Assembly (NCBI GenBank): GCA_027069855.1
Contig: JALXEF010000048.1
Span: 504-64,503 of the forward strand
Direction of reading: 5' to 3'
Length of the DNA stretch: 64,000 nucleotides
From: a candidate division WOR-3 bacterium
GTDB taxonomy: Bacteria > Hydrothermota > Hydrothermia > WGAB01
The position numbers and the translations under genes are program-made. Under the pieces are notes generated by a model that was not told the DNA's origin, ran no database searches, and saw only the letters and a list, made by a program, of their open reading frames with translations. Every line of letters starts with the position of its first letter. Positions within the stretch are counted from its first letter, which is position 1. Below, piece by piece: positions 4,106-56,104 of the stretch.

Positions 4106-4236
4106 GAACGCTTAGTTTACTCGGCCGCCTTTGCCTTTGCAAACCCCCTCCTCCATTCCCCTTGACATCCCCGCCCCTATGGTTTACACTGCAAACCGGT
4201 ATGGGTAAAAAACAGGTTCGCAAAAAGGAGGCAACC

Positions 4237-4854
4237 ATGGCTGCAGAAGCATCCCGTACCCCGCAGGTTCAGGAAATGATGCGGCGCGCCCGCAGCGCCT
4301 GGTGGGAAGACGGTATTACCGAGATCGTTTCGGGGCTCGGCCTGCTAATCCTCGGCTTTCTCGGGTTCCAGAAAGAGATGCTGCCGGCACCCCGGAACAT
4401 GGGATGGCAACTGGCCTGGACAGTGTGGCTCGGGGTCTTCATCGTGGGCGGAAACCTCCTGATCCGCCGGCTCAAGGCCCGGTATGTGTGGCCCGTGGCC
4501 GGCTACGCCACACCCCGGCAGGACCGCGACTGGCGGTGGGCCGGCGCGTTCTTCCTCACCCTGATCCTCCTCGTCGTGGTGGCGGCCTGGAATCCGCCCC
4601 ACTTCGGAGCGGCGATCGCCGGGCTTCCCCTCTTTATTTTTCTCCTGGCCCTGTACCGGTATACCCGGCTCCGGCGGTTCCTGGTGATCGGCACCCTGGC
4701 CCTGGTGGAAGGGCTGGTGCTCGCGCTTTTCCCCCTCAACGCCACGGCCGCCCTGCACCTGATCCTGGGCACCATCGGCCTCTTTTTCTGCTTCAGCGGC
4801 CTCTGGAACTGGCTGCGGTTCCGCCGGCGCCTTCAGGAGGCACCCCATGGCTGA
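4237..4854 (+). CDS. Hypothetical polytopic membrane protein
   Basis: Start chosen at MAAEAS, preceded by AAAGGAGG with 5-6 nt spacing. About 5 hydrophobic helices. Its stop overlaps the next gene by 8 nt. Confidence 0.6.
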   Translation: MAAEASRTPQVQEMMRRARSAWWEDGITEIVSGLGLLILGFLGFQKEMLPAPRNMGWQLAWTVWLGVFIVGGNLLIRRLKARYVWPVAGYATPRQDRDWRWAGAFFLTLILLVVVAAWNPPHFGAAIAGLPLFIFLLALYRYTRLRRFLVIGTLALVEGLVLALFPLNATAALHLILGTIGLFFCFSGLWNWLRFRRRLQEAPHG

Positions 4855-5158
4855 AGAGCTGTTCCAGGAGATTCGCCAGGTGGATCGGCTGGTGCATGAA
4901 CCCGCCCGGCTGGCCATCCTGGCCGTGCTCTACGGCGTGGAGGAGGCCGATTTCCTCTATCTGCTCCGGACCACAGGCCTCACCAAGGGCAACCTCTCGG
5001 CTCATCTGGCCAAACTGGAGGCCGCGGGCTATGTGGAGGTCCGGAAACGGTTCTTGGGCAAGAAGCCGAACACCGTGTGTCGGCTCACACCCGAGGGGCG
5101 ACAGGCCTTTGAGCGGTACCTCACCTGGCTGAAGCGCCTGGCCCGGAACCTGGGATAG
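4847..5158 (+). CDS. Winged-helix transcriptional regulator (HTH_34 / ArsR-PadR-like)
   Basis: 103 aa. The HEPARLAILAVL...GLTKGNLSAHLAKLEAAGYV helix-turn-helix-wing pattern. Translationally coupled to the upstream membrane protein. Confidence 0.7.
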   Translation: MAEELFQEIRQVDRLVHEPARLAILAVLYGVEEADFLYLLRTTGLTKGNLSAHLAKLEAAGYVEVRKRFLGKKPNTVCRLTPEGRQAFERYLTWLKRLARNLG

Positions 5159-5220
5159 GCCCGGCATTGCCCCCGCCTGCTTCGGGGCGTAAACTTCGCC
5201 CGTCAAAAAGGAGGCCTGTG

Positions 5221-6939
5221 GTGGATTCCCGGGAGTTCACCCTGCGGGCACTGGTGCTGGGCGTGCTGCTGGCCGTTGTCTTTGGTGCCGCCAACGCCTA
5301 TCTGGGTCTGAAGGCGGGCATGACCGTTTCGGCGTCCATCCCCGCCGCTGTGGTCAGCATGGCGATCCTGCGGGGGCTGCTGCGTTCCGGCACCATCCTG
5401 GAGAACAACATCGTGCAAACCATCGCCTCGGCCGGCGAATCCCTGGCGGCCGGGGTCATCTTCACGGTGCCGGCGCTGATCCTGCTGGGGCTCAATCCTT
5501 CGCTGTTCCTCATCTTCCTGGTGGCTGCCACCGGAGGGCTTCTGGGGGTGCTGCTGATGGTGCCCATCCGCAAGCACCTCATTGAGGACGAACACGAAAC
5601 CCTGCCGTATCCCGAGGGCACGGCCTGCGCCGAGGTGCTGGAGGCCGGAGAAGAGGGCGGCCGGAAGGCCGGCGAGGTGTTCCTGGGCACGGGACTGGGC
5701 GCCCTGCTGAAACTCCTGCCCGCCGGATTCCGGCTCTATCCCGGCGCCCCCTCGGTGTTCCTCCGACCCCTGAAAACCGTGCTGGGCGTGGACCTTTCAC
5801 CGGCCCTGGTGGGGGTGGGCTACATCCTGGGGCTCCGGATCTCGGCTCTGGTTCTCGCCGGCGGCGTGCTGGGCTGGTTCGTGTTCATCCCCCTGATCGC
5901 CCATCTTCAGGCGATCCCGCTCCACGGTGCCGACCAGGTGTTTGAGATCTGGCACACCCGGATCCGCTATATCGGTGCCGGCGCCGTGCTGGCCGGCGGC
6001 ATCGTAAGCCTGCTGCGCAGTTTCCCGGCCATCCTCGCCACCCTCCGGAACCTCCGCCTGGGCCAGAGCCGCCGCGACCTGCCTCTGGCCTGGGTTCTGC
6101 TGGGGGTGACGCTCGGGTTCCTGCTCCTCTGGCTCGGCCCCTGGTTCGGCCTGGGCTTCTATGGGGCCCTGTTCTCGGTTCTCTTCGCCTTCCTCTTTGT
6201 GCTGGTGTCGGCCCGCATCGTGGGGATCGTGGGCAGTTCCTCCAACCCGGTTTCCGGCATGACCATCGCCACCCTGCTGGTCACCGCCCTGATCTTCGTG
6301 AAACTGGGGGCCAGCGGCGCAGCCGGTATGCTGAAGGTGCTCACCCTGGGGGCGGTGGTGTGTATCGCGGCCGCCATCGCCGGCGACACAGCCCAGGACC
6401 TGAAAACCGGCTTTCTGGTGGGGGCCACGCCCTGGAAACAGCAGATCGGCGAACTCGTGGGCGTGCTCACCTCCGCGGTCTTCATCGGCTGGACCCTGTA
6501 TCTCCTGCACCACGCCTACACCATCGGCTCCCGGGAACTCTCGGCGCCCCAGGCCACCCTGATGTCCTTAGTGGTCAAGGGCGTGTTTGAGGGCAACCTG
6601 CCCTGGTTCCTGGTGGGCACCGGGGTGTTCACCGCCCTCACCGTAGAACTGCTGGGAATCCCCTCGCTGCCCTTTGCCGTGGGCCTGTACCTGCCCCTGG
6701 AACTCTCCACCTCCCTGGCGGTGGGAGGATTGGTGGCGTACGCCACCCGCCACACCCAGCAGGGGGTTCTCTTTGCCTCCGGGCTCGTGGCAGGCGACGC
6801 GCTGACCGGCATCCTGATCGCCCTGGCCCTCACCCTGGGCCTTCGCCTTCCGGCGGGCGTGGGCTTTCCTCCGCTGGCCTGGGTGGCCCTCGTCACCCTG
6901 GCCGCGCTTTTGTACTGGCGCGGACGCAACCGGGCATGA
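5221..6939 (+). CDS. OPT-family oligopeptide transporter
   Basis: About 570 aa with 14-16 predicted TM helices. N-terminal REFTLRALVLGVLLAVVFGAANAYLGLKAGMTVSASIPAAV is the OPT signature region. GTG start after AAAGGAGG; the ORF-track start at 5167 is probably upstream read-through. Confidence 0.85.
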   Translation: MDSREFTLRALVLGVLLAVVFGAANAYLGLKAGMTVSASIPAAVVSMAILRGLLRSGTILENNIVQTIASAGESLAAGVIFTVPALILLGLNPSLFLIFLVAATGGLLGVLLMVPIRKHLIEDEHETLPYPEGTACAEVLEAGEEGGRKAGEVFLGTGLGALLKLLPAGFRLYPGAPSVFLRPLKTVLGVDLSPALVGVGYILGLRISALVLAGGVLGWFVFIPLIAHLQAIPLHGADQVFEIWHTRIRYIGAGAVLAGGIVSLLRSFPAILATLRNLRLGQSRRDLPLAWVLLGVTLGFLLLWLGPWFGLGFYGALFSVLFAFLFVLVSARIVGIVGSSSNPVSGMTIATLLVTALIFVKLGASGAAGMLKVLTLGAVVCIAAAIAGDTAQDLKTGFLVGATPWKQQIGELVGVLTSAVFIGWTLYLLHHAYTIGSRELSAPQATLMSLVVKGVFEGNLPWFLVGTGVFTALTVELLGIPSLPFAVGLYLPLELSTSLAVGGLVAYATRHTQQGVLFASGLVAGDALTGILIALALTLGLRLPAGVGFPPLAWVALVTLAALLYWRGRNRA

Positions 6940-7676
6940 GCCGATACCCCGTGGCCTACCGGCTGGACCTGGAGTATGACGGCACCGACTTCTTCGGCTG
7001 GCAGATCCAGCCGCAGCACCGCACGGTGCAGGGCGAACTGCTGGAAGCCGCCCGCCGCCTGTTTCCCGATCAGGAGATCCGGATCATCGGCACCTCCCGC
7101 ACGGATCGGGGGGTGCATGCCCGGCACCAGGTGGCCGCCCTCTGGACCCATCAGGCCCGGGATCCGGCCGAGGTGCAGGCCGCTCTGAACGCCCTCACCG
7201 GCGACGACCTCTGGATCCACCGCGTTGTGCGGGCCCCTGAGGGGTTCAATCCGCGATACGCGGCGCGGGCCAAGCGGTACCGGTACCGCCTGGTGCGGGG
7301 GCGGTCGCCCCTGCGCCGGCGCTACGCCTGGGAGTTTCCCCTGCCCCTTGATCCGGAAGTGCTGCATTCCCTGGCGCCGCTGCTCCTCGGGGAACACGAC
7401 TTCGGCCCCCTGAGCGTGGACCGCCGGGAGGACACCCGGATCCAGGTGCTGGAATCTCGCTGGCACCTGGAGGGCGATGAGGCCAGGTACACCATCGTGG
7501 CGCCCCGGTTTCTTTACAAAATGGTGCGCATCCTGGTGGGCACCATGGTGCTGACCGCGGCCGGGCGGCTGCCGCCCGACACCCTGCACCGTGCGCTCCA
7601 GGGCGAGCGGGTGCGCTTCGTGGTGGCGCCGCCCCACGGGCTCTGCCTGGACCGGGTTTTCTTTGAAATGCCGTAA
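6936..7676 (+). CDS. truA: tRNA pseudouridine(38-40) synthase
   Basis: 246 aa. YDGTDFFGWQIQP and TSRTDRGVHA (catalytic Asp) motifs. 4-nt overlap with the OPT stop. Confidence 0.9.
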   Translation: MSRYPVAYRLDLEYDGTDFFGWQIQPQHRTVQGELLEAARRLFPDQEIRIIGTSRTDRGVHARHQVAALWTHQARDPAEVQAALNALTGDDLWIHRVVRAPEGFNPRYAARAKRYRYRLVRGRSPLRRRYAWEFPLPLDPEVLHSLAPLLLGEHDFGPLSVDRREDTRIQVLESRWHLEGDEARYTIVAPRFLYKMVRILVGTMVLTAAGRLPPDTLHRALQGERVRFVVAPPHGLCLDRVFFEMP

Positions 7677-7710
7677 AATTTTGCGAAACCGAACCTCGGA
7701 GGTCTCAATC

Positions 7711-8985
7711 ATGGGGTTTTTCCTGCCTTTGCTCCTCCTTACCGCCACGGTGCAGGAGCGGGTCCTCCCCAACGGCATGCGGGTGATCCTCAAGGAGGAC
7801 CACTCCGCCCCTCTGGTGGATGTCACGGTCGTGGTCAAATCCGGTGCGGTGTACGAAGCCGATTCCACCCTGGGCATGACCCACTTCCTGGAGCACCTGC
7901 TCTTTGACGGCACCGAAACCCAAACCCGCGAACAGATCCGCGATCGCTTCGACGAACGGGGCATCTACTTCAACGCCTTCACCCGCCACGACTTCACCGC
8001 CTACCTCATCAACGGCCCCTCGGAGTTCATTGACGACGGCATCCGAAACCAGGCCGACATGTTGATGCACTCCATCCTGCCCGAGCACGAACTGGAAAAA
8101 GAACGCCAGGTGGTGATTGAAGAGATGCACAAGGACCGGGCCCGCCCCTCGGAGGTGGCCGACGAACTCTTCCGAAGCATCGCCTACGCCGGCACCCCCT
8201 ACGCCAAGCCCGTGCTGGGATACGAAGAGCAAATCCTCCGGGTGAAACGCGGCACGGTGTACCGCTACTACAAAGCCTTTTACCGGCCCGACAACATGAT
8301 CGCCATCGTGATCGGCGACTTTGACCCGGACCACATCGTGAAGGTGCTGGAAGACGCCTACGGCCCCTCCCCCGACACACCTCTGCCGCCTGCCCCCGAG
8401 ATTCCTCCCTTCCAGCCGGAAGGCACGCGGGTGGTTCAGAAAACCTGGCAATTCCCCAGCACCTACCTGATGGTGGCCCTGCCGGCGCTCCCTCCCGACG
8501 ATCCCCGGGCCCCGGCCCTGGAGGTGCTTGTAGAACTCCTGAACAGCGAGGGCGACTCCCCGTTCCTGCAGCAGGTGGTGGCAGGCGACCATCCCCTGGC
8601 CGTGGAAGCCTACTTCTCCTACGAAAAGCACCTGGGGCTCAACACCCTGCAGTTGACCGCAAAGCCCAATTCCCCGGCGGACGCCCGGCGGATCCTCCAG
8701 ATCCTCCAGAACACCCTGTCCGACCTTTCCTGGATCACGGATGACATGGTGCGCCGGACCCGAACGGCCCTCGTGGCCGACCACTACTTTACCACGGAGA
8801 GTTTCACCTACGAGGGCATGTACCTGGCCTACTGGGTGGCCCTCGGAGGCAGCTACGACCTGTACCAGCGTTTTTACGACGGCATCCGGCAGGTATCGCG
8901 GGACCAGGTGCTGGCAGCGGGGCAGGCCGTGTTCCAGCCCCTGCGGTATGTGGCCGTCATCGTAGGACCGGGAGGTGCCCGATGA
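7711..8985 (+). CDS. M16-family zinc peptidase (insulinase-like), catalytic subunit
   Basis: Start at MGFFLPLLLL after GGAGG; the ORF-track start at 7591 overlaps truA and was rejected. HFLEH (HxxEH) zinc motif present. Confidence 0.85.
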   Translation: MGFFLPLLLLTATVQERVLPNGMRVILKEDHSAPLVDVTVVVKSGAVYEADSTLGMTHFLEHLLFDGTETQTREQIRDRFDERGIYFNAFTRHDFTAYLINGPSEFIDDGIRNQADMLMHSILPEHELEKERQVVIEEMHKDRARPSEVADELFRSIAYAGTPYAKPVLGYEEQILRVKRGTVYRYYKAFYRPDNMIAIVIGDFDPDHIVKVLEDAYGPSPDTPLPPAPEIPPFQPEGTRVVQKTWQFPSTYLMVALPALPPDDPRAPALEVLVELLNSEGDSPFLQQVVAGDHPLAVEAYFSYEKHLGLNTLQLTAKPNSPADARRILQILQNTLSDLSWITDDMVRRTRTALVADHYFTTESFTYEGMYLAYWVALGGSYDLYQRFYDGIRQVSRDQVLAAGQAVFQPLRYVAVIVGPGGAR

Positions 8986-40803: not shown

Positions 40804-41349
40804 GTGGCAACCCTGTTCCTGTGGCTGTGGCTTGCAAGCACACCGGTTCCCGATGATTGGGAGGCGGTGAACCGGGCCCTTGCAGCGGCCCTGGAACAGG
40901 TTTCCCTGGATCTTCCCGAAACCCTCCTGCTCCAACCCCAGGTGGCCGGAGAACCCCACCAGTGGGTGTTGGAACCCCTGCTGCACCGACATCTGCAGGA
41001 AACCCGGCACCGGATCCTGGCTCCGGCCCCCCGGGTCCTGGAGTTCCGCCCCCTGCAGGTCCGCATCCAGAAACACCGCATCGGCTGGTGGCACCAGCAG
41101 GTGGAACGCCGGGTGGTGCTGAAACTCTGGCTCGGGCTCCGGGATCCGGCCAGCGGCACCTACCTGTGGCAACAAACCCTCCGGGGCACCTACCGGGATA
41201 CCTTTCCCCTGGCCCTGGAACCTGAAACCCGGGTGGAGGGCCTCTCCCCCACCCTCCAGGACCGCCGGACCCTCTGGCGTGACCTTGCGGCCACCCTGGC
41301 CGTGAGCGGCCTGGTGTTTCTCTTGTACTCAGGAGGACATGGACCATGA
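40804..41349 (+). CDS. Hypothetical protein with N-terminal signal peptide and C-terminal hydrophobic segment
   Basis: About 181 aa, probably GTG-initiated. No recognisable domain. Its stop overlaps the ileS start. Confidence 0.4.
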   Translation: MATLFLWLWLASTPVPDDWEAVNRALAAALEQVSLDLPETLLLQPQVAGEPHQWVLEPLLHRHLQETRHRILAPAPRVLEFRPLQVRIQKHRIGWWHQQVERRVVLKLWLGLRDPASGTYLWQQTLRGTYRDTFPLALEPETRVEGLSPTLQDRRTLWRDLAATLAVSGLVFLLYSGGHGP

Positions 41350-44192
41350 AAGGCAAATGGCGCGATACCCTGAACCTGCCGAAAACCGAGTTTCCCATGC
41401 GGGCCAACCTTCCCAAACGGGAACCCAACCTGCTGCAGTGGTGGCAGGAGCAGAAGATCTACGAAAAAATGCTGGCCAAACACCGCCAGGATCCCCCCTT
41501 CATCCTCCACGACGGCCCGCCGTATTCCAACGGCCACCTGCACCTGGGCCATGCCGTCAACAAGGTGCTCAAGGACCTCCTGGTGAAGTACAAGGCCCTG
41601 CAGGGCCACTACACCCCCTTCGTGCCCGGCTGGGACAACCACGGCATGCCCATTGAACGCGCCGTGGTGCACCAGGACCCGGAGTTCGCCGAGATCCGCC
41701 ACGACCACGAGAAACTCCGGGATCCTCAGGTGCGGATCCGGATTCGGGAAAAATGCCGCGCCTTTGCCCAACACTGGGTGGAGATCCAGCGCAAGGAATT
41801 CGTGCGCCTGGGGGTGTTCGGCGACTGGGAGAAGCCCTACCTCACCATGTCGCCCGAGTTTGAGGGCGGCGAGATTGAGATCTTCGCCGATCTCGTGGAA
41901 CAGGGCTATGTGTACCGCGGCCGGATGCCCATCCACTGGTGCCCCTCCTGCCGCACCGCCCTGGCCATGATCGAGGTGGAATACTACGAAAAGGAATCGC
42001 CCTCCCTCTTTTTCTGGGTGCCGGTGCGCGATACCAAGGGCGTGATAGACCCCGATGTGTGGCTCGTGGTGTGGACCACCACGCCCTGGACCCTGATCGC
42101 CAACCGCGCCTTCGCCTTCCACCCGGACTACGACTATGTGGTGGCCGAGGTGGAAAGCGCCCAGGGCGAGCACCGGAAGGTGCTGCTCGCCGAACGCCTG
42201 CTGCCCGTGGTGGCCGAGATCGTGGGGTGGACCTCCTACCGGAAACTCCGCCGTATTCCGGGCCGCCAATTGGAGGGGCTCACCTTTGCCCACCCGATCT
42301 TTGAAGACCGCACCTCGCCCGCCATCCTGGCCGATTTCGTCACCCTCACCGAGGGCACCGGCGTGGTGCACATCGCGCCGGGCCACGGCAAGGAGGACTT
42401 TGAGATCGGCCGGAAGTACGGCCTGGAGGTGTTTTCACCGGTGGACGAGGCCGGCCGGTTCACCGCCGAGGCCGGTCCCGAGTTCCAGGGCCTCTTCGTG
42501 GGCAAGGAGGGCTCGGAGAAGGCCGTGGAGGTCCTGAAGCGCCACGGCCACTTCCTGCACCGCGAAACCCTCCGCCACACTTATCCCCACTGCTGGCGCT
42601 GCAAAAGCCCGCTCATCTTCCGGGCCACCACCCAGTGGTTCCTGTCGGTGGACCACCAGAACCTGCGGCACCGCGCCCTGAAGGCCATTGAGTCGGTGCG
42701 CTGGCATCCGCCGGAAACCATCAACCGGATTTACAACTCCGTCAAGGAGCGGCCCGATTGGGTGCTCTCCCGCCAGCGGGCCTGGGGCGTGAACATTCCC
42801 GTGTTTTACTGCGAGGACTGCGGCGAACCCCTGGTGGACCCCCGGGTGATGCGGCATGTGGCGCAGATCTTCAAACAGGAAACCGCCGACGCCTGGTACC
42901 GCCGCCCGGTGCAGGACCTGCTGCCCCCGGATACCCGCTGCCCCCACTGCGGCGGCACCCGGTTCCGCCGCGAGGACGACATCCTGGATGTGTGGTTTGA
43001 TTCCGGCGCCACCAACCTGATCGTGCTCCGCGAGGAGAACGGCCTCCGCTGGCCCTCCGATGTGTACCTGGAGGGCTCGGACCAGCACCGCGGCTGGTTC
43101 AATTCCTCCCTGATGCTCGCCATGGCCGAACGGGGCCAGCCGCCGTACCGCGCCGTCATCACCCACGGCTGGACCCTGGACGAGCAGGGCCGGGCCATGC
43201 ATAAGTCGCTGGGCAATGTCATCTCACCCCAGGAGGTCATTGACCGCTACGGCGCCGATGTGCTCCGCCTCTGGGTGACCTCCTCGGATTACACCGAGGA
43301 CATCCGGCTGGGGCCCGAGATCCTGGCCAGGATGGTGGACTCCTACCGCAAGATCCGCAACACCTACCGCTTCATGCTGGGCAACCTGTACGACTTTGAC
43401 CCCGCCCGGCACCGTGTGCCCTACGATCGGATGAAACCCCTGGACCGGTTCCTGCTCCACCAGTACAGCCAGCTTTTGGCCGACCTGGAGCGGTTCTACG
43501 AGAACTTTGAGTTTCACCGGGTGTTCCATCGCTACTTCAACTTCGTGGTGGTGGACCTCTCGGCCTTTTACCTGGATGTGGTCAAGGACCGGCTGTACAC
43601 CTGGGCCCCGGACACCCCCGAGCGCCGCAGCGCCCAAACCGTGATCTACGAACTGCTGCGCGGGCTGCTGGTGGCCTTTGCGCCGGTGCTGTCGTTCACC
43701 ACCGAGGAGGCCTGGCAACTCCTGCCCGGTGACCACCCCGAGAGCGTGTTCCTGGCCGACTGGCCCCGCCCCGAGGCCTCCTGGCACAACGAAACCCTGG
43801 CCCGGGAGTTCCAGCGGCTGCTGGAGGTGCGCGAGGTGGCCCTCCGGGCCCTGGAAACCGCCCGCAAGGACCAAAAACTCATCCAGGATCGCCTGGAGGC
43901 CGAACTGCTCCTCGAAACCCAGGACCCCGATCTTGCGGCCCTGCTGGACCGCTATGCCGCCGACCTGCCCGAGTTCTTCGTGGTGTCCGGCGTCCGGCGG
44001 GTGGCCGACCTGCCCGCCGAGACTCCGGTGGTAGAGGCCGGCGAGAACCTGCGCGTGGGGGTGCAGCGCAAGGCCGGCCAGAAGTGCGCCCGGTGCTGGA
44101 TGTGGCACGAGGCCGTGGGACAGCACCCCGAGTACCCCGACCTCTGCCCCAAGTGCATCCGGGCGGTGGAGAGCCTGCGCCATGAAGATTGA
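41346..44192 (+). CDS. ileS: Isoleucine--tRNA ligase
   Basis: 948 aa. HIGH-type PPYSNGHLHLGH, KMSKS-type KSLGNV, CP1 editing domain, and C-terminal zinc-binding CxxC pairs (CARCW...CPKC). Confidence 0.95.
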   Translation: MKGKWRDTLNLPKTEFPMRANLPKREPNLLQWWQEQKIYEKMLAKHRQDPPFILHDGPPYSNGHLHLGHAVNKVLKDLLVKYKALQGHYTPFVPGWDNHGMPIERAVVHQDPEFAEIRHDHEKLRDPQVRIRIREKCRAFAQHWVEIQRKEFVRLGVFGDWEKPYLTMSPEFEGGEIEIFADLVEQGYVYRGRMPIHWCPSCRTALAMIEVEYYEKESPSLFFWVPVRDTKGVIDPDVWLVVWTTTPWTLIANRAFAFHPDYDYVVAEVESAQGEHRKVLLAERLLPVVAEIVGWTSYRKLRRIPGRQLEGLTFAHPIFEDRTSPAILADFVTLTEGTGVVHIAPGHGKEDFEIGRKYGLEVFSPVDEAGRFTAEAGPEFQGLFVGKEGSEKAVEVLKRHGHFLHRETLRHTYPHCWRCKSPLIFRATTQWFLSVDHQNLRHRALKAIESVRWHPPETINRIYNSVKERPDWVLSRQRAWGVNIPVFYCEDCGEPLVDPRVMRHVAQIFKQETADAWYRRPVQDLLPPDTRCPHCGGTRFRREDDILDVWFDSGATNLIVLREENGLRWPSDVYLEGSDQHRGWFNSSLMLAMAERGQPPYRAVITHGWTLDEQGRAMHKSLGNVISPQEVIDRYGADVLRLWVTSSDYTEDIRLGPEILARMVDSYRKIRNTYRFMLGNLYDFDPARHRVPYDRMKPLDRFLLHQYSQLLADLERFYENFEFHRVFHRYFNFVVVDLSAFYLDVVKDRLYTWAPDTPERRSAQTVIYELLRGLLVAFAPVLSFTTEEAWQLLPGDHPESVFLADWPRPEASWHNETLAREFQRLLEVREVALRALETARKDQKLIQDRLEAELLLETQDPDLAALLDRYAADLPEFFVVSGVRRVADLPAETPVVEAGENLRVGVQRKAGQKCARCWMWHEAVGQHPEYPDLCPKCIRAVESLRHED

Positions 44193-48171: not shown

Positions 48172-49217
48172 TGGAGCACCTGCAACTCCTGGACGCCCTC
48201 CGCACCGGGAAAAAGGTGCCGGAGGGTCCGGTTTTCGTGTTCGTGGGCCCGGAACGATACCTCATGCGTGTGGCCGAGGAACGGCTCGTGGCCTACCTGG
48301 GCCTTTCCGGCCGCCGCGTGCTCTGGGCCGATGAAACCGAGGAGGCGACCCTCCTCCAGGAGTTGACCTCCCCTTCGCTTTTCGGAGGGGCACCGCTGTT
48401 TGTCCTGAAGCGGGCGGAAGCCCTGAAAAGCCTGGACACCCTGCTGGCCTCTCCCCACCTGCCGCCGGTGGTCCTGGAGGTGCACGACGACCTCAAGGCC
48501 TACCGGCAGTGGCTCCGGGGCCGCGGCCTCAAACGGGTGCAGCCCCAAGCCCTGGCGCGCGCCCTGGACAAAAAGTACAAGGGCAAGCTCACCGCCGTGG
48601 CCTTTCCGGAACTCGGCCGCGGATCCCAGCGGGAACGCGAAGCCCGGGCGTTCCACCACTGGATCCAGAGCGAATTGAAACGCCTGGGCGCTCCCGCCCG
48701 CCTTGAGATCCTGCGATTCCTCTCGGCCTATCTTCCCCGCGACCTCACCGCCGCCTCCCAGGAACTCCAGAAGGTGGCCCTGTACCTGGCGGCCCAGCCC
48801 CAGGCCACCACCGCAGAGGTCCAGCGGCTCCTCGGCACCCGCAGCACCTTCAATGTGTTCAACCTCACCGGCGCTCTGATCTCGGGCGACATCAAACGCT
48901 TCATCGCCGAGTTCCGGGAACTCCAGAAAACCGGTGAAAGCCCCCAGGGTATCCTCTCCCTGCTGGAGCACACCCTCCTGGACCTCATCCTGGTAAAGGC
49001 CGGCCTGCCCGTGGACCGGCCGAAGTTCGTGCTGGAACGCTACCGCTCCTTCACCCGAGTTTTAACCCTCGGCGACCTGTTTCGCCTGCTGCAGCGGGTT
49101 CGGGATACCGAAATCCGCCTGCGCTCGCGTTCGGTCAACGCCCCGGTGGCAGTGGAAACCCTGTTCTTTGACCTCCTATGGTGGCGTACAGCCTCCTCCT
49201 CGCCCTCCTCACGGTAG
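48171..49217 (+). CDS. holA: DNA polymerase III delta subunit-like protein
   Basis: 348 aa. Its position and AAA+-lid-like helical architecture fit HolA. The 3' end overlaps the next ORF by about 40 nt, so one of the two boundaries is uncertain. Confidence 0.65.
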   Translation: MEHLQLLDALRTGKKVPEGPVFVFVGPERYLMRVAEERLVAYLGLSGRRVLWADETEEATLLQELTSPSLFGGAPLFVLKRAEALKSLDTLLASPHLPPVVLEVHDDLKAYRQWLRGRGLKRVQPQALARALDKKYKGKLTAVAFPELGRGSQREREARAFHHWIQSELKRLGAPARLEILRFLSAYLPRDLTAASQELQKVALYLAAQPQATTAEVQRLLGTRSTFNVFNLTGALISGDIKRFIAEFRELQKTGESPQGILSLLEHTLLDLILVKAGLPVDRPKFVLERYRSFTRVLTLGDLFRLLQRVRDTEIRLRSRSVNAPVAVETLFFDLLWWRTASSSPSSR

Positions 49218-50896
49218 CCCCGCCGCCGCCCGCCGGCACAGCCGACACCTACGCGGTTCTGGCCACCTACTACCGGGAAGCCGGTTTCCCGGACAGCGCC
49301 CTGCAGGTGCTGCAGGAGGGGTACCGGCAAACCCGGGCGCCCCTTTTGCTCCGGCAGATCGTGGAACTCCGCTACAGCCTGCAGGACTTCCAGGGATGCG
49401 TGCAGGCCGCCCGCCGATACCTGAAAACCGCCGGACCCGACTCTCTGGTGTACGATCTGGCGGTTCGCGCCCTCCTGGGCCTGGACCGGGACCGCGAAGC
49501 CCGACGGCTCCTGGAAGCCTACCTGCGGGCGTTCCCCGACCTGCCGGCGGCCGTTCGGCTGGCCGCCAATGTGCTGGAGGTACAGCAGCGCCCGGATACC
49601 GCCCTGTTCCTCTATCGCCGGGCTTATCTCTTGAATCCCCGGAGTCTTCCGCTCCTCCGGGACTTCCTGGCCTTTCTGGTGCAACAGGACCATCTGCAGG
49701 AGGCCCAACGGCTGCTGGCCCGCTACGGCGATTCCCTGGAGGGCTCCTATAAGGTGGAACTCGCCTGGGCTGTGCTGCTGGAAAAACAGGGCGACCTGAA
49801 CGGCGCCCTGATCCATTACGCCCGGGCCAGCTTCCTGCGACGATCCCCTGAACTCCTCGCCCGTATGGCCCAGCTGGCCCTGCAGATGGACCGCCCCAAG
49901 GAGGCCTGGAAAATCCTGGCCCCTGCCCTGGAAACCTACCCGCTGGACCCCGAAATCCTGAAACTCGGGGGCATCACCCGGTACCACCTGGCGGAATACA
50001 CCGATGCCCTGCACCTGCTGCTGGCGGCCCGGGCCCTGCAGCCTGACGACGCCGAAACCCACTACTTTCTGGCCCGCACCCTCCGCGCCCTGGGACAGGA
50101 AGCCGAAGCCCTGCACGAGGCCCAGCAGGCCTTTGAACTGAACCACGACCCCGACTACGGCCTGTACCTCGCCTACCTGTTCATCCTGAACAACCGGCCC
50201 GAGAAGGCTTTGCAGGTGCTGCGGCAACTGCGCCTCACCGACCGCGCCCACTTTTACACCCTGAAGGGCTTTGCCTTTCAGCTCCTGGGGGAACCCGATT
50301 CCGCCTACCTCGCCCTGCGCCGCGCCGTGGCCCTGGACCCCCGGAATCCCAAACGGCTGCGGGATCTCGCCCGCTTCTGCAGCCAAACGGGCCGCACCGA
50401 CGAAGCCCTGGCGATCCTGAAAACCCTCTGGCACCGCGGCCAGGCTTCGTTCCAGGACCTCATGGCGCTGGCGCTGCTGCTGGCCGACCGGGAGGAGTAC
50501 GCCCGGGCCGACTCCGTGTTCCGGGAACTCTACGCCCGGGATTCCACCAACGCCCTGGTCCTCAACAACTGGGGCTACACCCTGGCCGAATGGGGGCAAC
50601 ACCTGGACCTGGCCCGCCGACTCCTGGAACGGGCCCTGCAACTGGATCCGGACAACCCCATCTACCTGGATTCCATGGGCTGGATCTATTACCGGCTGGG
50701 ACGGTTCCGGCTGGCCCGGCACTATGTGGAGCGGGCGCTGCAACTCGGAGCCCGCGATCCCGACATCCTGGAGCACATGGGCGACATCCTGAAGGCCCTG
50801 GGATATCCGGAACAGGCCCAGCGGTACTGGCAGGAGGCCCTGCAACGCGCACCCGACAATGCCCGGCTCCGCCAGAAACTCCAGCAAAACCTTTAA
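49178..50896 (+). CDS. TPR-repeat protein with N-terminal signal peptide
   Basis: 572 aa containing at least 10 TPR units. Confidence 0.7.
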   Translation: MVAYSLLLALLTVAPPPPAGTADTYAVLATYYREAGFPDSALQVLQEGYRQTRAPLLLRQIVELRYSLQDFQGCVQAARRYLKTAGPDSLVYDLAVRALLGLDRDREARRLLEAYLRAFPDLPAAVRLAANVLEVQQRPDTALFLYRRAYLLNPRSLPLLRDFLAFLVQQDHLQEAQRLLARYGDSLEGSYKVELAWAVLLEKQGDLNGALIHYARASFLRRSPELLARMAQLALQMDRPKEAWKILAPALETYPLDPEILKLGGITRYHLAEYTDALHLLLAARALQPDDAETHYFLARTLRALGQEAEALHEAQQAFELNHDPDYGLYLAYLFILNNRPEKALQVLRQLRLTDRAHFYTLKGFAFQLLGEPDSAYLALRRAVALDPRNPKRLRDLARFCSQTGRTDEALAILKTLWHRGQASFQDLMALALLLADREEYARADSVFRELYARDSTNALVLNNWGYTLAEWGQHLDLARRLLERALQLDPDNPIYLDSMGWIYYRLGRFRLARHYVERALQLGARDPDILEHMGDILKALGYPEQAQRYWQEALQRAPDNARLRQKLQQNL

Positions 50897-50912
50897 GCAC
50901 CCCGGCAAACTG

Positions 50913-51503
50913 GTGATCGGCATCACCGGTGGGGCCGGGGCCGGTAAAACCACCTTTGCCCGGTTCCTGGAACAGTACGGTGCCACCGTGATTGAGGCCG
51001 ACCGCGTGGGCCATGAGGTGCTCGGCCTGCCGGAGGTCCGGGAACAGTTGGTCCAGGCCTTCGGCCCCGAGATTCTGGCGCCCGACGGCACCGTGGACCG
51101 CAAAAAACTGGGGCGGCGCACCTTCGCCGATCCCCGGGCCCTTCAAACCCTCACCCGCATCGTGAAACCCTGGATCGTGGCCCGTATTCAGGAGGCCGTG
51201 CAGCAGGCCCCCACCGAGATCGTGGCGGTGGACGGCGCCCTCATTTACGAGTACGGGGTGGAGGACCTCTTTGACCAGGTGGTCGTGGTCACCGCCCCCG
51301 AGGATCTCCGGCTCCGGCGTTTCATGGCCAAAACCGGCTATCCGGAGGAGGTGGCGCGGCGCCTCCTCCGGCAGCAAATGCCCGAAGAGGAAAAGATCCG
51401 GCGGGCCGATCATGTGGTGTACAACACGGGCTCCCTGAGCCGGCTGGAACAGCAGGCCCGCAGCCTGTATCGCACCTGGCGCACCCTCCTGCAGGACCCG
51501 TAG
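50913..51503 (+). CDS. coaE: Dephospho-CoA kinase
   Basis: Start proposed at GTG (VIGITGGAGAGKTT, P-loop at the extreme N-terminus as in CoaE). An ATG at 50859 would overlap the TPR gene by 38 nt. Confidence 0.8.
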   Translation: MIGITGGAGAGKTTFARFLEQYGATVIEADRVGHEVLGLPEVREQLVQAFGPEILAPDGTVDRKKLGRRTFADPRALQTLTRIVKPWIVARIQEAVQQAPTEIVAVDGALIYEYGVEDLFDQVVVVTAPEDLRLRRFMAKTGYPEEVARRLLRQQMPEEEKIRRADHVVYNTGSLSRLEQQARSLYRTWRTLLQDP

Positions 51504-51695
51504 GCCCCGGTGTTCCGTTCTGCAACAGGGGTTCATGTCCGTCGGCTGCTTCCTCCCGTCCATAGAAACCCTATCCGGTCAACATTGGCCTATAAACCGG
51601 CATGACCCCCAAAGGGCCCGCCGCTTTGGCAGAGGGTTTGCATACCTTCAGGGTGGCTTCCGATGCACTGAACTGCGAAACAAAAGGAGGGCATC

Positions 51696-52766
51696 ATGAA
51701 GCGGCTTGTTGCAGGACTCGCAGTCATCGGGTTGGTCCTGGTGCTCGGGACCAACTGTAAGAAAACCGAGGAGGAAACTCCCGGTCCCGAGCAAACGCTG
51801 CCGACCTCGCTCCACGGCACCACCTACGGCATGAAGTACTGGTACGAAGTCGCCCAACCGCAGGGGTTCATCCAGTACACCAACATCCCCTACGACTCCC
51901 TGGGCTGCTACCACTGCCACATTGATGTGGAGGAATACGGCTGCAGCCAGTGCCACGAGACCCCGGGCGACAAACCCGCTGCGGACAAGTGCTACGCCTG
52001 CCACGGACGCGAAAAGAAGGAGAGCATGTTCTACAGCGATGTGCACCGCGACGCCGGCCTGGTGTGCGCCGACTGCCATAAGGGCGAGGAGGTCCACGGC
52101 GACGGCAACCACTACAACACCATGTATGTGAGCCCCCACGAGCCTAAGTGTGAGGACTGCCACAACCCCAGCGATCTGCCGCAGCACGCGGAGCACGCCA
52201 TGCACCTGAACAACCTCCACTGCACCGCCTGCCACGCCCAGGCCGTGATCTCCTGCTATAGCTGCCACTTCCAGTCCATGACCCAGTACGGCATCAAACT
52301 CGCCTACGGTGTGCTGAAGGACTGGCTCTTCCTGGCCAACAACCCCGACGGCAAGGTGCAGGCAGCCATCCTGATGCCGCTGGAGTACGGCGAGGGCAAA
52401 ACCTTCATGGCCATCGGCCGGTATGTGCCGCACACCATCACCAAGGAGAACGCGCGGCACTGCTCCGACTGCCACGACAACGCGGCGGCCCACGAATACC
52501 TGGAGACCGGCGAGATCGTGTGCACCTGGTGGAACCCGGATTCCGCCCGCCTGGAGCACCTGACGGGCGTGATCCCCATTCCGCCGGACTACCAGACCGC
52601 GCTGAAGTTCACCTACATGCAGTGCGTGAGCGGCTGCGACGATCCGGAAACCGCCCAGTGGGAACCCATCGAACCGCAAGGGGTGACCAACGCCTGGCAG
52701 ATGCTGGACGAGTCCTGTGAGCCCCTCACCCGTGAGCAGATCGAAAAACTGGCGGAACCCCACTGA
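51696..52766 (+). CDS. Octaheme c-type cytochrome, secreted (possible lipoprotein)
   Basis: 356 aa with RBS AAAGGAGG. Signal peptide MKRLVAGLAVIGLVLVLGTNC, with Cys after an atypical lipobox. Eight CXXCH motifs: CYHCH, CSQCH, CYACH, CADCH, CEDCH, CTACH, CYSCH, CSDCH. Five further Cys in the C-terminal 80 aa. Confidence 0.85.
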   Translation: MKRLVAGLAVIGLVLVLGTNCKKTEEETPGPEQTLPTSLHGTTYGMKYWYEVAQPQGFIQYTNIPYDSLGCYHCHIDVEEYGCSQCHETPGDKPAADKCYACHGREKKESMFYSDVHRDAGLVCADCHKGEEVHGDGNHYNTMYVSPHEPKCEDCHNPSDLPQHAEHAMHLNNLHCTACHAQAVISCYSCHFQSMTQYGIKLAYGVLKDWLFLANNPDGKVQAAILMPLEYGEGKTFMAIGRYVPHTITKENARHCSDCHDNAAAHEYLETGEIVCTWWNPDSARLEHLTGVIPIPPDYQTALKFTYMQCVSGCDDPETAQWEPIEPQGVTNAWQMLDESCEPLTREQIEKLAEPH

Positions 52767-52790
52767 TCCGCCTTTCCGGGCCATAGGCTT

Positions 52791-52820
52791 GCTGCGGGGC
52801 CCTGCATTGGGCCCCGCAGC
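52791..52820 (+). promoter_or_regulatory. Perfect 12-bp GC-rich hairpin (GCTGCGGGGCCC-tgcatt-GGGCCCCGCAGC) between the octaheme cytochrome and beta-barrel genes
   Basis: Read directly from the sequence; followed by CGTTTAAACG and then the RBS AAAGGAGG of the next gene. Candidate partial terminator or mRNA-processing/stability element setting operon stoichiometry. Confidence 0.4.
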
Positions 52821-52848
52821 CGTTTAAACGCTCCAAAGGAGGCTTGTT

Positions 52849-54018
52849 ATGGGCGTTTTGTGGACCGTTCTCCTGGCCTGGACCCTGAACGGGGGGCTGG
52901 GGCTCAGCGTGGTCCCCTATGCGGTGACCGATTCCACCCGCGATGTCTCCGTCGCCCCCTATCTCCGGGTCCAGGCCCTGAATCCTCTGCCCGGCCTTTC
53001 CGTGAACCTGGCGCTCCGGGGGTACCGGGCGGACACCGCCCGGCCGAAGGCCCCGGCCCTGCGGCTGCTCGTGGCCAATATCCACTTCCAGCGCCCCGGT
53101 GTGCCGGTAACCCTTTGTGTGGGCCGCCAGTTCCAGTACCTCGGGCTCGGCGGCCTGGTGGACGGCGCCTCCGTGGGCTTCCGGCTGAACCGCGCCGAAC
53201 TCTCGGCCCTGCTGGGATACCGCGCCCCCTCGGTGTTTGACGATACCACGGGCCTGGAGATCCGGAGCCAGAACCCCCTGTTCGCCGTTCAGGCCCGGAT
53301 GGATCCCCTGGCCCGGCTTCAGGTGTATGCGGGCTACGGCCGCGAAGGCCTTGAGGACACCGTGGTACAGGCCCCCCTGTGGCTCGGATTCCGGTCCTAC
53401 GACCACGCCTGGAACCTGGAAGGGGAACTGGCCTACGACCTGGAATACTCGGTGCTCAGTCGCGGCCGCCTCAGCGCTTCGTACCGGATCCCCCGGGCCC
53501 TGCTTCACTTCCACTACCGGTACCAGGACCCCTGGCGCGATTTTCTGAAACTCACCCTGCCCTCCTGGCTCCGCGACGACCCCGTGAAGTACAGCATCCC
53601 CACCCATCGCCTGGAGGCCTCGGTGCGACTCCAGGATCCCCTGCCCGGCGCCTCCTTCGGCCTCTTTTACGCGTACAACACCGAAACCTCCTATCGCCAC
53701 CTGTGGATGGCCTATCGGCTTCAGCGGCTGTACTTCCGGGTGTGGACCGGCCAGGAATGGGAGGGCACGGCATACGGCGGCCTCCTCACCTATAGCCATC
53801 GCCTGAACCCACAACTTTCTGCCCTGCTCCAGCTTCGCCTGGCCAAAAGCCCCCGCTACGACGGCCTGGTGTACAGCCTCCGCCCCCGCCTGGTGTGGCG
53901 CTTCCCCGGCTCGGGCCTCTCGGTACAGGCCGAGTTCCGCTTCTGGAAACTGCCCGGCGTCCAATGGGAAACCCAGGGCTATCTGGGTCTGCACCTGCCC
54001 TTCAGCAGGAGGTTTTGA
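52849..54018 (+). CDS. Predicted outer-membrane beta-barrel (porin-like) protein of the cytochrome cluster
   Basis: 389 aa. Signal peptide, alternating hydrophobic/polar beta-strand pattern rich in Y/R/L/G throughout, and a C-terminal ...LPFSRRF ending in Phe as in OMP sorting signals. No Cys and no heme motifs. Confidence 0.65.
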   Translation: MGVLWTVLLAWTLNGGLGLSVVPYAVTDSTRDVSVAPYLRVQALNPLPGLSVNLALRGYRADTARPKAPALRLLVANIHFQRPGVPVTLCVGRQFQYLGLGGLVDGASVGFRLNRAELSALLGYRAPSVFDDTTGLEIRSQNPLFAVQARMDPLARLQVYAGYGREGLEDTVVQAPLWLGFRSYDHAWNLEGELAYDLEYSVLSRGRLSASYRIPRALLHFHYRYQDPWRDFLKLTLPSWLRDDPVKYSIPTHRLEASVRLQDPLPGASFGLFYAYNTETSYRHLWMAYRLQRLYFRVWTGQEWEGTAYGGLLTYSHRLNPQLSALLQLRLAKSPRYDGLVYSLRPRLVWRFPGSGLSVQAEFRFWKLPGVQWETQGYLGLHLPFSRRF

Positions 54019-54021
54019 GCC

Positions 54022-54825
54022 ATGCAAGCCCTGCTTTTGCTTCTTGTGACCTGGACCTTTCCGCATCAGTTGCATGTGGTGGAAATGGGCCTGGAGTGCG
54101 CCGCCTGCCACGGCGCTGTGGAAACCAGCACCAAAAGCACCGATATGCTGCTGCCCGACCCCTCGGTGTGCCAGGAGTGCCACGAGAACAGCATGGGGTA
54201 CCAGCAGCCCGCCCAGGCCCCGGTCCTGATCGCCCATTTCCCCCACCAAACCCACCTGAGCCAGGGAGTGTCCTGCACCGTATGCCACGGCGACACGGCC
54301 TACCCCACCCTGCCCCGGATGGCCACCTGTATGACCTGCCACAACGGCGACCAGGCCCCCAACACCTGCACCACCTGCCACGAAGAGCACGATTCCCGGT
54401 TTGCCACCTATCACCCGCCGGCCTGGCTCTCCCTGCACGGCGACTTCGCCCGCACCCAGATCCCCTCGTGCCGGATGTGCCACCCCACCACCCAGGCGCT
54501 GGCCGATCCGTCGCCTTCGCCCTCCTGTGAAACCTGCCACGAGCAGGAGAACCTCAAACTCCAGGTGCACCCCAAAACCTTCCTCTACACCCACGCCGAG
54601 GCCTTCGCCACCCGGCAAATGGACTGCGCCGCCTGCCACCGGAACTACCAGGACTGCCTGTCGTGCCACCAGCAGCAGGCCTCCATTCCGCTGGATCACC
54701 TGAACCCCGGATGGGTGGCGGAGGGGCTCCACGGCACCGAAGCCCGGATCAATCCGGACCGGTGCCTCGTGTGCCACGGCGAACAGCAGAATACCTGTCA
54801 GCGCTGCCACTCCGGGAGACCGTAA
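54022..54825 (+). CDS. Undecaheme c-type cytochrome (c7/c3-polymer-like), secreted
   Basis: 267 aa with a signal peptide. Eleven CXXCH motifs: CAACH, CQECH, CTVCH, CMTCH, CTTCH, CRMCH, CETCH, CAACH, CLSCH, CLVCH, CQRCH. About 24 aa per heme. It starts 4 nt after the barrel gene stop. Confidence 0.85.
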   Translation: MQALLLLLVTWTFPHQLHVVEMGLECAACHGAVETSTKSTDMLLPDPSVCQECHENSMGYQQPAQAPVLIAHFPHQTHLSQGVSCTVCHGDTAYPTLPRMATCMTCHNGDQAPNTCTTCHEEHDSRFATYHPPAWLSLHGDFARTQIPSCRMCHPTTQALADPSPSPSCETCHEQENLKLQVHPKTFLYTHAEAFATRQMDCAACHRNYQDCLSCHQQQASIPLDHLNPGWVAEGLHGTEARINPDRCLVCHGEQQNTCQRCHSGRP

Positions 54826-54905: not shown

Positions 54906-55766
54906 ATGCGGGTCATTGAAAGCAACCGGGAAATGCAGCAGGTGGCCGACGAGCTCCGCCGCCAGGGCAAAACCATCGGCTTCGTGCCCACCATGGGCGC
55001 CCTGCACGAAGGCCACCTGTCCCTCGTGCGCTGCAGTACCGACGAAAACGATGTCACCGTTGTCTCCATCTTCGTCAACCCCACCCAGTTCGGGCCCAAC
55101 GAGGACTACGAGCGCTACCCGCGGGACCCCGAGGGCGACCTGGCCAAGTGCGAGCGCGCCGGCGTGGACATCGTGTTCATGCCCACGGTAGAGGAGATGT
55201 ACCCCGAGGGCTATGTCACCTATGTGGAGGTGACCGGCCACCTCACCCAAACCCTGTGCGGGGCCTTCCGGCCGGGGCACTTCCGGGGCGTGACCACCGT
55301 GGTCACCAAGCTCTTTGAAGCGGTGAAACCCCACCGGGCCTACTTCGGCAAAAAGGATTACCAGCAGTGGCGAGTGATCCAGCGGATGGTGCGCGATTTG
55401 AACATGCCGGTGGAAATCATCGGTTGTCCCATCGTCCGCGAGCCCGATGGCCTGGCCATGAGTTCTCGAAACCGCTACCTGTCGGAGGAGGAACGCCGTT
55501 CCGCCCTCGCGCTCTACCGGGGGCTCTTGATGGCCCGCGAACGCATCCTCAACGGCGAACGCGACACCTCCCGCATCATCCGCGAGGTGTTTGAGTTCAT
55601 TGAATCGCACCCCCATGTGCGCAAGATTGACTATGTGGCCGTGGTGGACCCGGAAACCCTCCAGCCCGTGGGACGGCTGGAATCCGGGCAACAGGTGCTC
55701 GTGGCCGTGGCCGTGCATGTGGGCCCGGCCCGGCTGATTGACAACATGGAGATCCAGGTGCCATGA
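54906..55766 (+). CDS. panC: Pantoate--beta-alanine ligase
   Basis: 286 aa. [10 protein letters not shown] and [10 protein letters not shown] motifs. Confidence 0.95.
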
Positions 55767-56104
55767 AGCGGCTGGTGCTGAAGTCCAAGATCCACCGGGT
55801 GCGGGTGACCGGCACCCACCTGGGCTACGAGGGGAGCATCACCCTGGGGCCGGAGTACCTGGAACAGGCCGATCTCGTGCCCTATGAACGGGTGGACATC
55901 TACAACATCACCAACGGTGCCCGGTTTTCCACCTATGTGATCCGGGGCAAGCCCGGAGAGGTCATCCTGAACGGGGCCGCCGCCCGGCTGGCCCAGCCCG
56001 GCGACCTCCTGATCATCGCCGCCTACACCTGGATGGACGACGAGGAACTCAAGGAGTTCCGCCCCAGGGTGGTGATTGTGGAGCCCGGGGACGGGGCAGC
56101 CTGA
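55763..56104 (+). CDS. panD: Aspartate 1-decarboxylase
   Basis: 113 aa. [28 protein letters not shown] with the Gly-Ser self-processing site. ATGA-coupled to panC. Confidence 0.95.

Follow-up and report, generated by a model that had tools for sequence, protein, structure and literature searches.

Gene content of the locus

In a 64-kb stretch of DNA from a candidate division WOR-3 bacterium (contig JALXEF010000048.1; this whole stretch is hereafter called the window), we characterized a gene encoding an 11-heme c-type cytochrome together with the short cluster to which it belongs. The cluster is composed of three co-directional genes, encoding successively an 8-heme cytochrome, a predicted outer-membrane beta-barrel protein and the 11-heme cytochrome, and is bordered on both sides by unrelated housekeeping genes, coaE (50859-51503) and panC/panD (54906-56104).

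51696-52766, plus strand: 8-heme cytochrome of 356 amino acids (aa), probable lipoprotein, proposed as the outer-face component (translation, 8 CXXCH motifs).
52849-54018, plus strand: predicted outer-membrane beta-barrel of 389 aa with about 22 strands and the C-terminus LPFSRRF (AlphaFold2 model, Foldseek, profile-profile comparison).
54022-54825, plus strand: 11-heme c-type cytochrome of 267 aa (translation, motifs, homologues, ratio of non-synonymous to synonymous substitution rates, dN/dS).

Re-translation of 54022-54825 yielded an intact open reading frame (ORF) of 267 aa and a stop codon, with exactly 11 CXXCH motifs starting at residues 26, 50, 85, 103, 116, 150, 169, 202, 212, 248 and 259, in agreement with the coordinates, motif count and density of about 24 residues per heme given in a preliminary description of this DNA. 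All of the 22 Cys lie inside these motifs, the protein contains 23 His, and neither CX3-4CH nor CXXCK variants were found in the translation. The density amounts to 24.3 residues per heme, or ~ 23.4 once the first 10 residues are subtracted. Such a content of 11 motifs is far beyond chance expectation; of the ORFs of 60 aa or more in the six frames of the window, only this one and the 8-heme cytochrome gene carried two or more CXXCH motifs. The first Cys being residue 26, the protein has no lipobox, as previously noticed.

The possibility that a frameshift conceals two shorter cytochromes, raised in the same description, was contradicted by several lines of evidence. The G+C content at third codon positions of the ORF (0.86) is the same as that of real neighbouring genes, in a window of 64% G+C. 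The close homologues (n = 5, 265-267 aa, 98-50% identity), which form a tight clade, keep the full length and all 11 motifs, and comparison with orthologues of 76-78% identity gives a dN/dS of ~ 0.19, revealing a gene under purifying selection. The ORF is therefore real and unsplit. On the opposite strand, a 694-aa ORF (52726-54810, minus strand) covers both the barrel gene and the cytochrome gene. This antisense ORF did not pass the coding-composition filter and is probably an artefact of the high G+C content, whereas homologues under purifying selection were found for the plus-strand genes.

Modular architecture of the 11-heme cytochrome

The protein is organized into five consecutive units preceded by a short N-terminal segment.

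54052-54219, plus strand: unit N1, c7-like, residues 11-66, hemes 1-2, in which FPHQLH gives H15 and H18 (Pfam, hhalign).
54232-54393, plus strand: unit N2, complete c7-like triheme unit, residues 71-124, hemes 3-5, in which FPHQTH gives H75 and H78, with Met100 (Pfam).
54397-54549, plus strand: unit C1, diheme repeat, residues 126-176, hemes 6-7, with His131 and His139 (hhalign).
54553-54678, plus strand: unit C2, diheme repeat, residues 178-219, hemes 8-9, with His183 and His191 (hhalign, conservation).
54682-54819, plus strand: unit C3, diheme repeat, residues 221-266, hemes 10-11, with His226 and His237 (hhalign, conservation).

When the protein was scanned in pieces, two N-terminal segments exceeded the 24.8-bit cut-off of the Pfam family Cytochrome_C7 (PF14522), namely residues 11-64 (31.4 bits, profile positions 2-54 of 67) and residues 71-124 (28.8 bits, profile positions 2-67 of 67). 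Alignment of sub-alignments with hhalign related N1 to N2 with a probability of 99.1% (E-value 2e-18), and the three C-terminal units to one another with probabilities of 98.6-99.1% (E-values of 1e-16 to 1e-18; 99.1% for C1 versus C2, 98.6% for C1 versus C3). The C units share the pattern H-x3-4-[WF]-x3-5-H-x3-A-x5-7-CXXCH-x5-14-CXXCH, and the heme formula of the protein is 2+3+2+2+2. The likeness to c7 that had been proposed for the protein thus holds for its N-terminal half, where both units pass the Cytochrome_C7 threshold, and not for its C-terminal half, which consists of diheme repeats.

A word-indexed search recovered 251 relatives of the cytochrome, and the conservation figures given below come from an alignment of 100 relatives. 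Distant relatives (27-38% identity over ~ 95% of the length) contain 11-16 hemes in 277-468 aa, with 23-36 residues per heme, so that the high density, although correctly estimated at first, is a trait of the family and not an exception. With its 267 aa, the window protein is the shortest among the best 120 of these 251 relatives.

The odd number of hemes had been attributed to a domain fusion or rearrangement. In the alignment, 73 of the 100 relatives carry a third CXXCH in N1 that is absent from the window protein, and the odd count therefore reflects a missing third N1 heme site in a modular family rather than such an event. The region of residues 220-267 also shows one or two extra hemes in most relatives.

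Ten His located outside the motifs (residues 15, 18, 75, 78, 131, 139, 183, 191, 226 and 237) are conserved in 95-100% of the aligned relatives, among which H75 in 99% and H78 in 98%, and Met100 is conserved in 83%. The initial proposal that His-containing segments between the motifs could supply the distal ligands holds up, these segments containing the candidate ligands H75, H78, H183 and H191, all conserved at 98% or more. The ten His and Met100 equal the hemes in number and could provide each of them with a distal ligand, the pairing of ligands to individual hemes being proposed by analogy with c7. The conserved Met ahead of the last N2 heme is reminiscent of the His-Met heme of GSU1996 domains.

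A Pro/Ser-rich insert, PTTQALADPSPSPS, occupies residues 155-168 (54484-54525) between hemes 6 and 7, within C1. It is restricted to the close clade and absent from distant relatives, and may represent a hinge or a barrel-contacting loop. In the AlphaFold2 model of the cytochrome, built from 100 sequences, the mean predicted local distance difference test score (pLDDT) is 78, with values above 90 across residues 11-120 and below 50 in this insert.

The beta-barrel and the 8-heme cytochrome

No Pfam or NCBIfam match was found for the 389-aa protein encoded immediately upstream of the 11-heme cytochrome. Its AlphaFold2 model (pLDDT 68, built from only five sequences) is all-beta, with a low-confidence N-terminal segment and, past residue 38, 21 strands of 7-13 residues. 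When compared with the Protein Data Bank (PDB) using Foldseek, this model matched outer-membrane barrels only (LptD, porins, OccK and VDAC).

By sequence, the barrel family is very small, with 4 relatives recovered by the word-indexed search and 10 by an exhaustive hidden Markov model search among 1.84 billion representatives, and its link to other conduit barrels required profile-profile comparison. Aligned with hhalign to the barrels adjoining the distant cytochromes, the profile of the window family matched end to end, over 359 columns, with a probability of 98.3% and an E-value of 1e-14, and both profiles have in common the motif GRQ[FW]..G...DG. The barrel and the cytochrome thus form an old module whose two parts are inherited together.

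The 8-heme cytochrome encoded by the first gene of the cluster begins with the signal sequence MKRLVAGLAVIGLVLVLGTNC. Its own lipobox is non-canonical (LGTNC), but Cys21 occupies the same alignment column as the lipobox Cys of its L002 counterpart, where the box is canonical (LVGAC), and the protein is a probable lipoprotein. Pfam returned weak c3/c7 matches and nothing stronger, and no sequence relative was found in the PDB. Between the window and the orthologous locus L001 (3685-4755), this protein is 92% identical, with a dN/dS of 0.09, the adjacent barrel being 70% and the 11-heme cytochrome 76% identical; such uneven divergence inside one operon could reflect stronger constraint or recent exchange. 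In the comparison with L002 this ranking is inverted, the identity of the 8-heme cytochrome falling to 29%.

Genomic context of the relatives

The same three genes were observed in relatives whose cytochromes are 76% and 50% identical to that of the window, the latter in a different genomic context. Further away, every distant context that was readable places the cytochrome gene immediately after a gene of 410-460 aa without Pfam match, often with an overlap of 1-4 nucleotides (nt). Downstream of the cytochrome gene, these distant loci contain one or more multiheme cytochrome genes, the next one usually encoding a lipoprotein; the cytochrome directly downstream has a canonical lipobox in loci L005-L010 and a lipoprotein-like signal in L017. 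These lipoprotein outer cytochromes, with 5, 8 or 14 hemes, are unrelated to each other from one locus to another.

This gene adjacency crosses phylum boundaries. Seven loci are of Bacteroidota type (L005-L010 and L012; five metagenome-assembled genomes, MAGs, labelled Bacteroidota/Bacteroidetes and two labelled Chromatiales), with the cluster located right after nuoM/nuoN. The barrel-cytochrome order was also retrieved in a Myxococcales MAG (L013), the L017 cluster lies beside Rieske/cytochrome b genes, and the clusters of L018-L020 lie beside genes encoding a rhodanese, a CbcL-like protein and a sigma-54 activator.

Within the Bacteroidota-type loci (positions ~ 3800-7800), the cluster comprises four genes, encoding a 4-heme cytochrome (not evident everywhere), the barrel, the 11-heme cytochrome and a 5-heme lipoprotein bearing a Geobacter CX4CH...CXXCH motif domain. 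The two loci from Chromatiales-labelled MAGs show near-collinearity with those of Bacteroidota. In an Actinobacteria MAG (L011, 4723-9036) and in a Gemmatimonadetes MAG (L016, 3371-6660), partial homologues of these heme modules belong to membrane-anchored proteins of 8-21 hemes with no adjoining barrel.

Comparison with known electron-transfer systems

In clusters of the Pcc/Ext kind, a porin with 18-22 transmembrane motifs is encoded together with a 5-14-heme periplasmic cytochrome and an outer-membrane lipoprotein cytochrome, the latter being diverse (PMC4245776, PMC6148476). The porin and the periplasmic cytochrome co-evolve and the outer cytochromes are variable (PMC4245776; Geobacter Ext, PMC6148476). 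The same parts are found in the window as in the Geobacter systems OmbB-OmaB-OmcB and ExtABCD/ExtEFG, which combine a porin-like barrel of ~ 18-22 strands with two multiheme cytochromes, one of them a lipoprotein and the other, encoded beside the barrel and bearing 5-14 or 12 hemes, not. Here, the gene of a ~ 22-strand barrel adjoins that of a cytochrome whose CXXCH count lies in the 5-14 range and which lacks a lipoprotein signal, and the cluster also encodes a multiheme cytochrome that is probably a lipoprotein. As in Geobacter, the barrel and the inner cytochrome are inherited together and the outer cytochrome varies, and the rhodanese, CbcL-like and sigma-54 activator genes flanking some of the relatives' clusters are also present in Geobacter ext regions.

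Differences were also identified. The gene order in the window is lipoprotein cytochrome, barrel, inner cytochrome; the inner cytochrome holds its 11 hemes in only 267 aa; the signals of the barrel and inner cytochrome measure about 10 residues; and the barrel family is nearly orphan by sequence (10 representatives). No matching Ext or Oma model was found in NCBIfam for the 11-heme cytochrome. Viewed as a porin-cytochrome conduit, the window system is of a known kind, of which the compactness and the miniature signals are distinctive.

The MtrCAB, MtoAB and PioAB systems follow the same principle, with a barrel-threaded multiheme cytochrome contacting a surface lipoprotein cytochrome. They differ from the window system, with its 389-aa barrel of about 22 strands, in heme count and repeat architecture as well as in the barrel, that of MtrB being much larger. 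Membership of the MtrA/DmsE/MtoA/PioA decaheme family was rejected, given that TIGR03508 was unmatched at E-values up to 1, that no sequence or fold match to MtrA was found in the PDB and that the barrel is so short; in barrels of the Mtr type, 28 transmembrane motifs are predicted (PMC4245776). Assignment to QrcA or DsrJ was likewise discarded, with either no NCBIfam match or, for QrcA, one far below the cut-off. Among the undecaheme proteins of the literature, OccP (922 aa) and UetJ, both predicted to be extracellular and found in other cluster types, and UndA (extracellular) were judged unrelated on the basis of size and context.

The best PDB match of the 11-heme cytochrome was ActA of alternative complex III (6lod, 8k9e, 6f0k and 6btm), with an E-value of 2.6e-9 by sequence and 3.5e-3 with Foldseek. 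Both proteins share the unit F-x-H-x-x-H-x(6-8)-CXXCH, in a match limited to the two N-terminal units (TM-score 0.28), and ActA is a pentaheme protein, compared with 11 hemes in the window cytochrome. ActA belongs to an inner-membrane complex. With such local similarity, and no actB-F genes nearby (the neighbours being coaE, the genes of the cytochrome cluster and panCD), an alternative complex III was dismissed.

Proposed role and alternative explanations

Taken as a whole, we consider it likely that the 11-heme cytochrome is the inner, periplasm-facing and barrel-threaded subunit of a three-component outer-membrane electron conduit of the Pcc/Ext type. The preliminary description had hesitated between a soluble periplasmic protein and one inserted in the barrel, and the conserved barrel-cytochrome gene pair fits the second term. 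According to this model, the three genes would be co-transcribed, with translation of the cytochrome coupled to that of the barrel, and the cytochrome would be exported and receive its 11 covalently attached hemes. The resulting near-linear chain of hemes, made of two c7-like and three diheme units with mostly bis-His coordination, would thread into the ~ 22-strand barrel. Electrons would pass between periplasmic carriers and the surface 8-heme lipoprotein, which would in turn exchange them with minerals or partners outside the cell. Export, barrel insertion, surface exposure of the lipoprotein, and the direction and substrate of electron flow are inferred in this model.

Four points weigh against this conduit. 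The partial homologues devoid of a barrel, at least one of them from a MAG labelled as a monoderm lineage, indicate that such heme modules also occur outside conduits. The likeness to OmaB, ExtA and ExtG of Geobacter rests on layout and not on direct sequence comparison. In the 64-kb window, genes for an inner-membrane quinol dehydrogenase or for cytochrome maturation were not found. Lastly, the export signal is abnormally short and without a charged n-region, and export of the cytochrome to the periplasm is only presumed.

An alternative would be that of a soluble periplasmic wire or capacitor, similar to GSU1996 or PpcA, merely co-expressed with the barrel. Several traits recall such proteins: the absence of a lipobox, a density of ~ 24 residues per heme similar to that of c7 (PpcA) and GSU1996, and an N-terminal half where N1 and N2 carry the F-x-H-x-x-H...CXXCH arrangement and twice exceed the Cytochrome_C7 threshold. 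In addition, the PDB search returned c7 and a GSU1996 fragment as weak matches, at an E-value (~ 0.04) that is not significant. By contrast, the c7-like units account for just 5 of the 11 hemes, the other 6 belonging to three diheme repeats, and a triheme c7 polymer of the GSU1996 type was rejected, TIGR04257 being unmatched at E-values up to 1 and residues 126-266 being made of these repeats. The genomic context is also that of a barrel and not of a periplasmic carrier locus, and a free carrier would have no obvious need to be encoded so strictly beside a homologous barrel gene, which it often overlaps, in an arrangement maintained across phyla. A soluble carrier therefore appears unlikely.

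A reversed topology was also envisaged, in which the 8-heme lipoprotein would be periplasmic and the 11-heme protein would reach or lie on the surface. The non-canonical lipobox of the 8-heme cytochrome does not assure its sorting to the surface, and the 11-heme chain could span the membrane alone, two-gene Pcc clusters without an outer cytochrome having been discussed (PMC4245776). Nevertheless, where Mtr and Pcc systems have been characterised, the external component is the lipoprotein cytochrome, and the cytochrome paired with the barrel, which is not a lipoprotein, is periplasmic (PMC4245776, PMC6148476). Moreover, the barrel partner in the relatives is always a member of the same family as the 11-heme protein and the lipoprotein cytochromes are mutually unrelated, which corresponds to the published pattern of outer cytochromes and makes the reversed arrangement improbable.

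If the 11-heme protein is indeed the barrel-threaded subunit of a Pcc/Ext-type conduit, porin-cytochrome conduits, which support extracellular electron transfer in metal respiration, iron oxidation and electrode or syntrophic exchange, would be extended to an uncultured lineage related to candidate division WOR-3. Leaving aside one paper on WOR-3 and multiheme cytochromes, our full-text literature searches found no pairing of WOR-3 with porin-cytochrome clusters. Our results also provide a modular description of a widespread and unnamed family of inner cytochromes, composed of two c7-like and three diheme units with 11-16 hemes and always paired with a homologous barrel; solved structures are apparently lacking for the whole family. 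The 267-aa version, the most compact among the relatives compared, represents an attractive minimal target for structural and synthetic-biology work.

Short presumed export signals

54022-54051, plus strand: residues 1-10 of the 11-heme cytochrome (MQALLLLLVT), ultra-short hydrophobic N-terminus, presumed minimal export signal (homologue alignment).

What had been described as a signal peptide is only ~ 10 residues long, a feature that was initially overlooked. The cytochrome starts with MQALLLLLVT, directly followed by WTFPHQLH, without any Lys or Arg in the n-region, and this start is conserved in all five close homologues, down to 50% identity. The first conserved His comes after only 14 residues, compared with a median of 42 in 91 relatives; outside the close clade, 89% of relatives have Lys or Arg in the n-region, and nearly all relatives have ordinary signal peptides. 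The positions before Trp11 (T, A or G at -1, L or V at -3) are compatible with a putative cleavage by signal peptidase I. A longer N-terminus starting upstream was rejected, an in-frame stop lying one codon upstream and the Shine-Dalgarno sequence being conserved.

The barrel shows the same peculiarity. Its N-terminus (52849-52881) reads MGVLWTVLLA followed by WTLNGG, i.e. again ~ 10 uncharged hydrophobic residues and then W-[TG], and this short form is present in all barrel relatives, down to 26% identity. The other exported proteins of the window have ordinary signals. Just upstream of the cluster, a 572-aa TPR protein (49178-50896) also begins with a short hydrophobic N-terminus free of Lys and Arg (MVAYSLLLALLTVAPPPP); its match to the CcmH/CycH TPR domain (48 bits, for a whole-protein cut-off of 42) was graded sub-threshold, among many generic TPR matches.

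The short N-terminus could be taken as the truncation of a decaying product that no longer reaches the periplasm or matures, since only ~ 10 residues without a Lys/Arg n-region precede the first c7 unit, but this is very improbable for a gene with a dN/dS of 0.19, whose N-terminus is maintained down to 50% identity, obeys the -3/-1 rule before Trp11 and is mirrored in all members of the barrel family, and whose 11 motifs and ligand His are all retained.

A more speculative proposal, which we regard as doubtful, is that the uncharged 10-residue segment shared by the barrel and the cytochrome (h-h-h-[ATG] followed by W-[TG]) would be among the shortest natural Sec signals, or would mark a dedicated or coupled targeting route. 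Tight translational coupling might then deliver the cytochrome at a translocon already engaged by the barrel. If true, the compact module of 11 hemes and ~ 22 strands would be a minimal, separately evolved conduit assembly in a deep-branching uncultured phylum. These miniature signals constitute a small puzzle, and none of the present results overturns current understanding.

Gene coupling, regulation and neighbouring genes

54007-54012, plus strand: Shine-Dalgarno sequence AGGAGG of the cytochrome gene, within the final codons of the barrel gene (sequence; conserved in orthologues).
51627-51642, plus strand: sigma-54-type -24/-12 element TGGCAG-N5-TTGCA, tentative promoter ending 54 nt upstream of the first cluster gene (consensus match).

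The stop codon of the barrel gene and the ATG of the cytochrome gene are separated by 3 nt, in the same frame (TGA GCC ATG, 54016-54024), and GGAGG is kept 7-9 nt ahead of the cytochrome ATG in four orthologues. The shared frame led us to consider a read-through fusion of both proteins, which was rejected: the orthologues of these genes either share 4 nt or are read in different frames, and the junction would therefore serve translational coupling rather than read-through.

The sigma-54-type element is the sole match in the window, where 0.16 were expected, with at least one match in 14 of 100 shuffles. It is conserved in the orthologous locus L001, and sigma-54 activator genes flank distant homologous clusters; as a promoter of the cluster, this putative element is suggestive only. 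Consensus scans of the window found no sigma-70 promoters and a single terminator-like site, on the minus strand, fewer than expected by chance, and no RNA family was found in the window with Rfam.

The window as a whole matched metagenome-assembled contigs only. Its IleS (41346-44192) is 98-59% identical to proteins from MAGs, and the nearest named relatives (52-56% identity) belong repeatedly to candidate division WOR-3 (Caldifarciminota at NCBI), with Armatimonadota/Fervidibacter next, which gives a tentative position at the phylum level. Elsewhere in the window, we observed ExbB/D-like genes (assigned by eye from N-terminal sequences), a gene for a Wza-like exporter and one for a BamD-like TPR lipoprotein, a gene content that fits with a diderm envelope.

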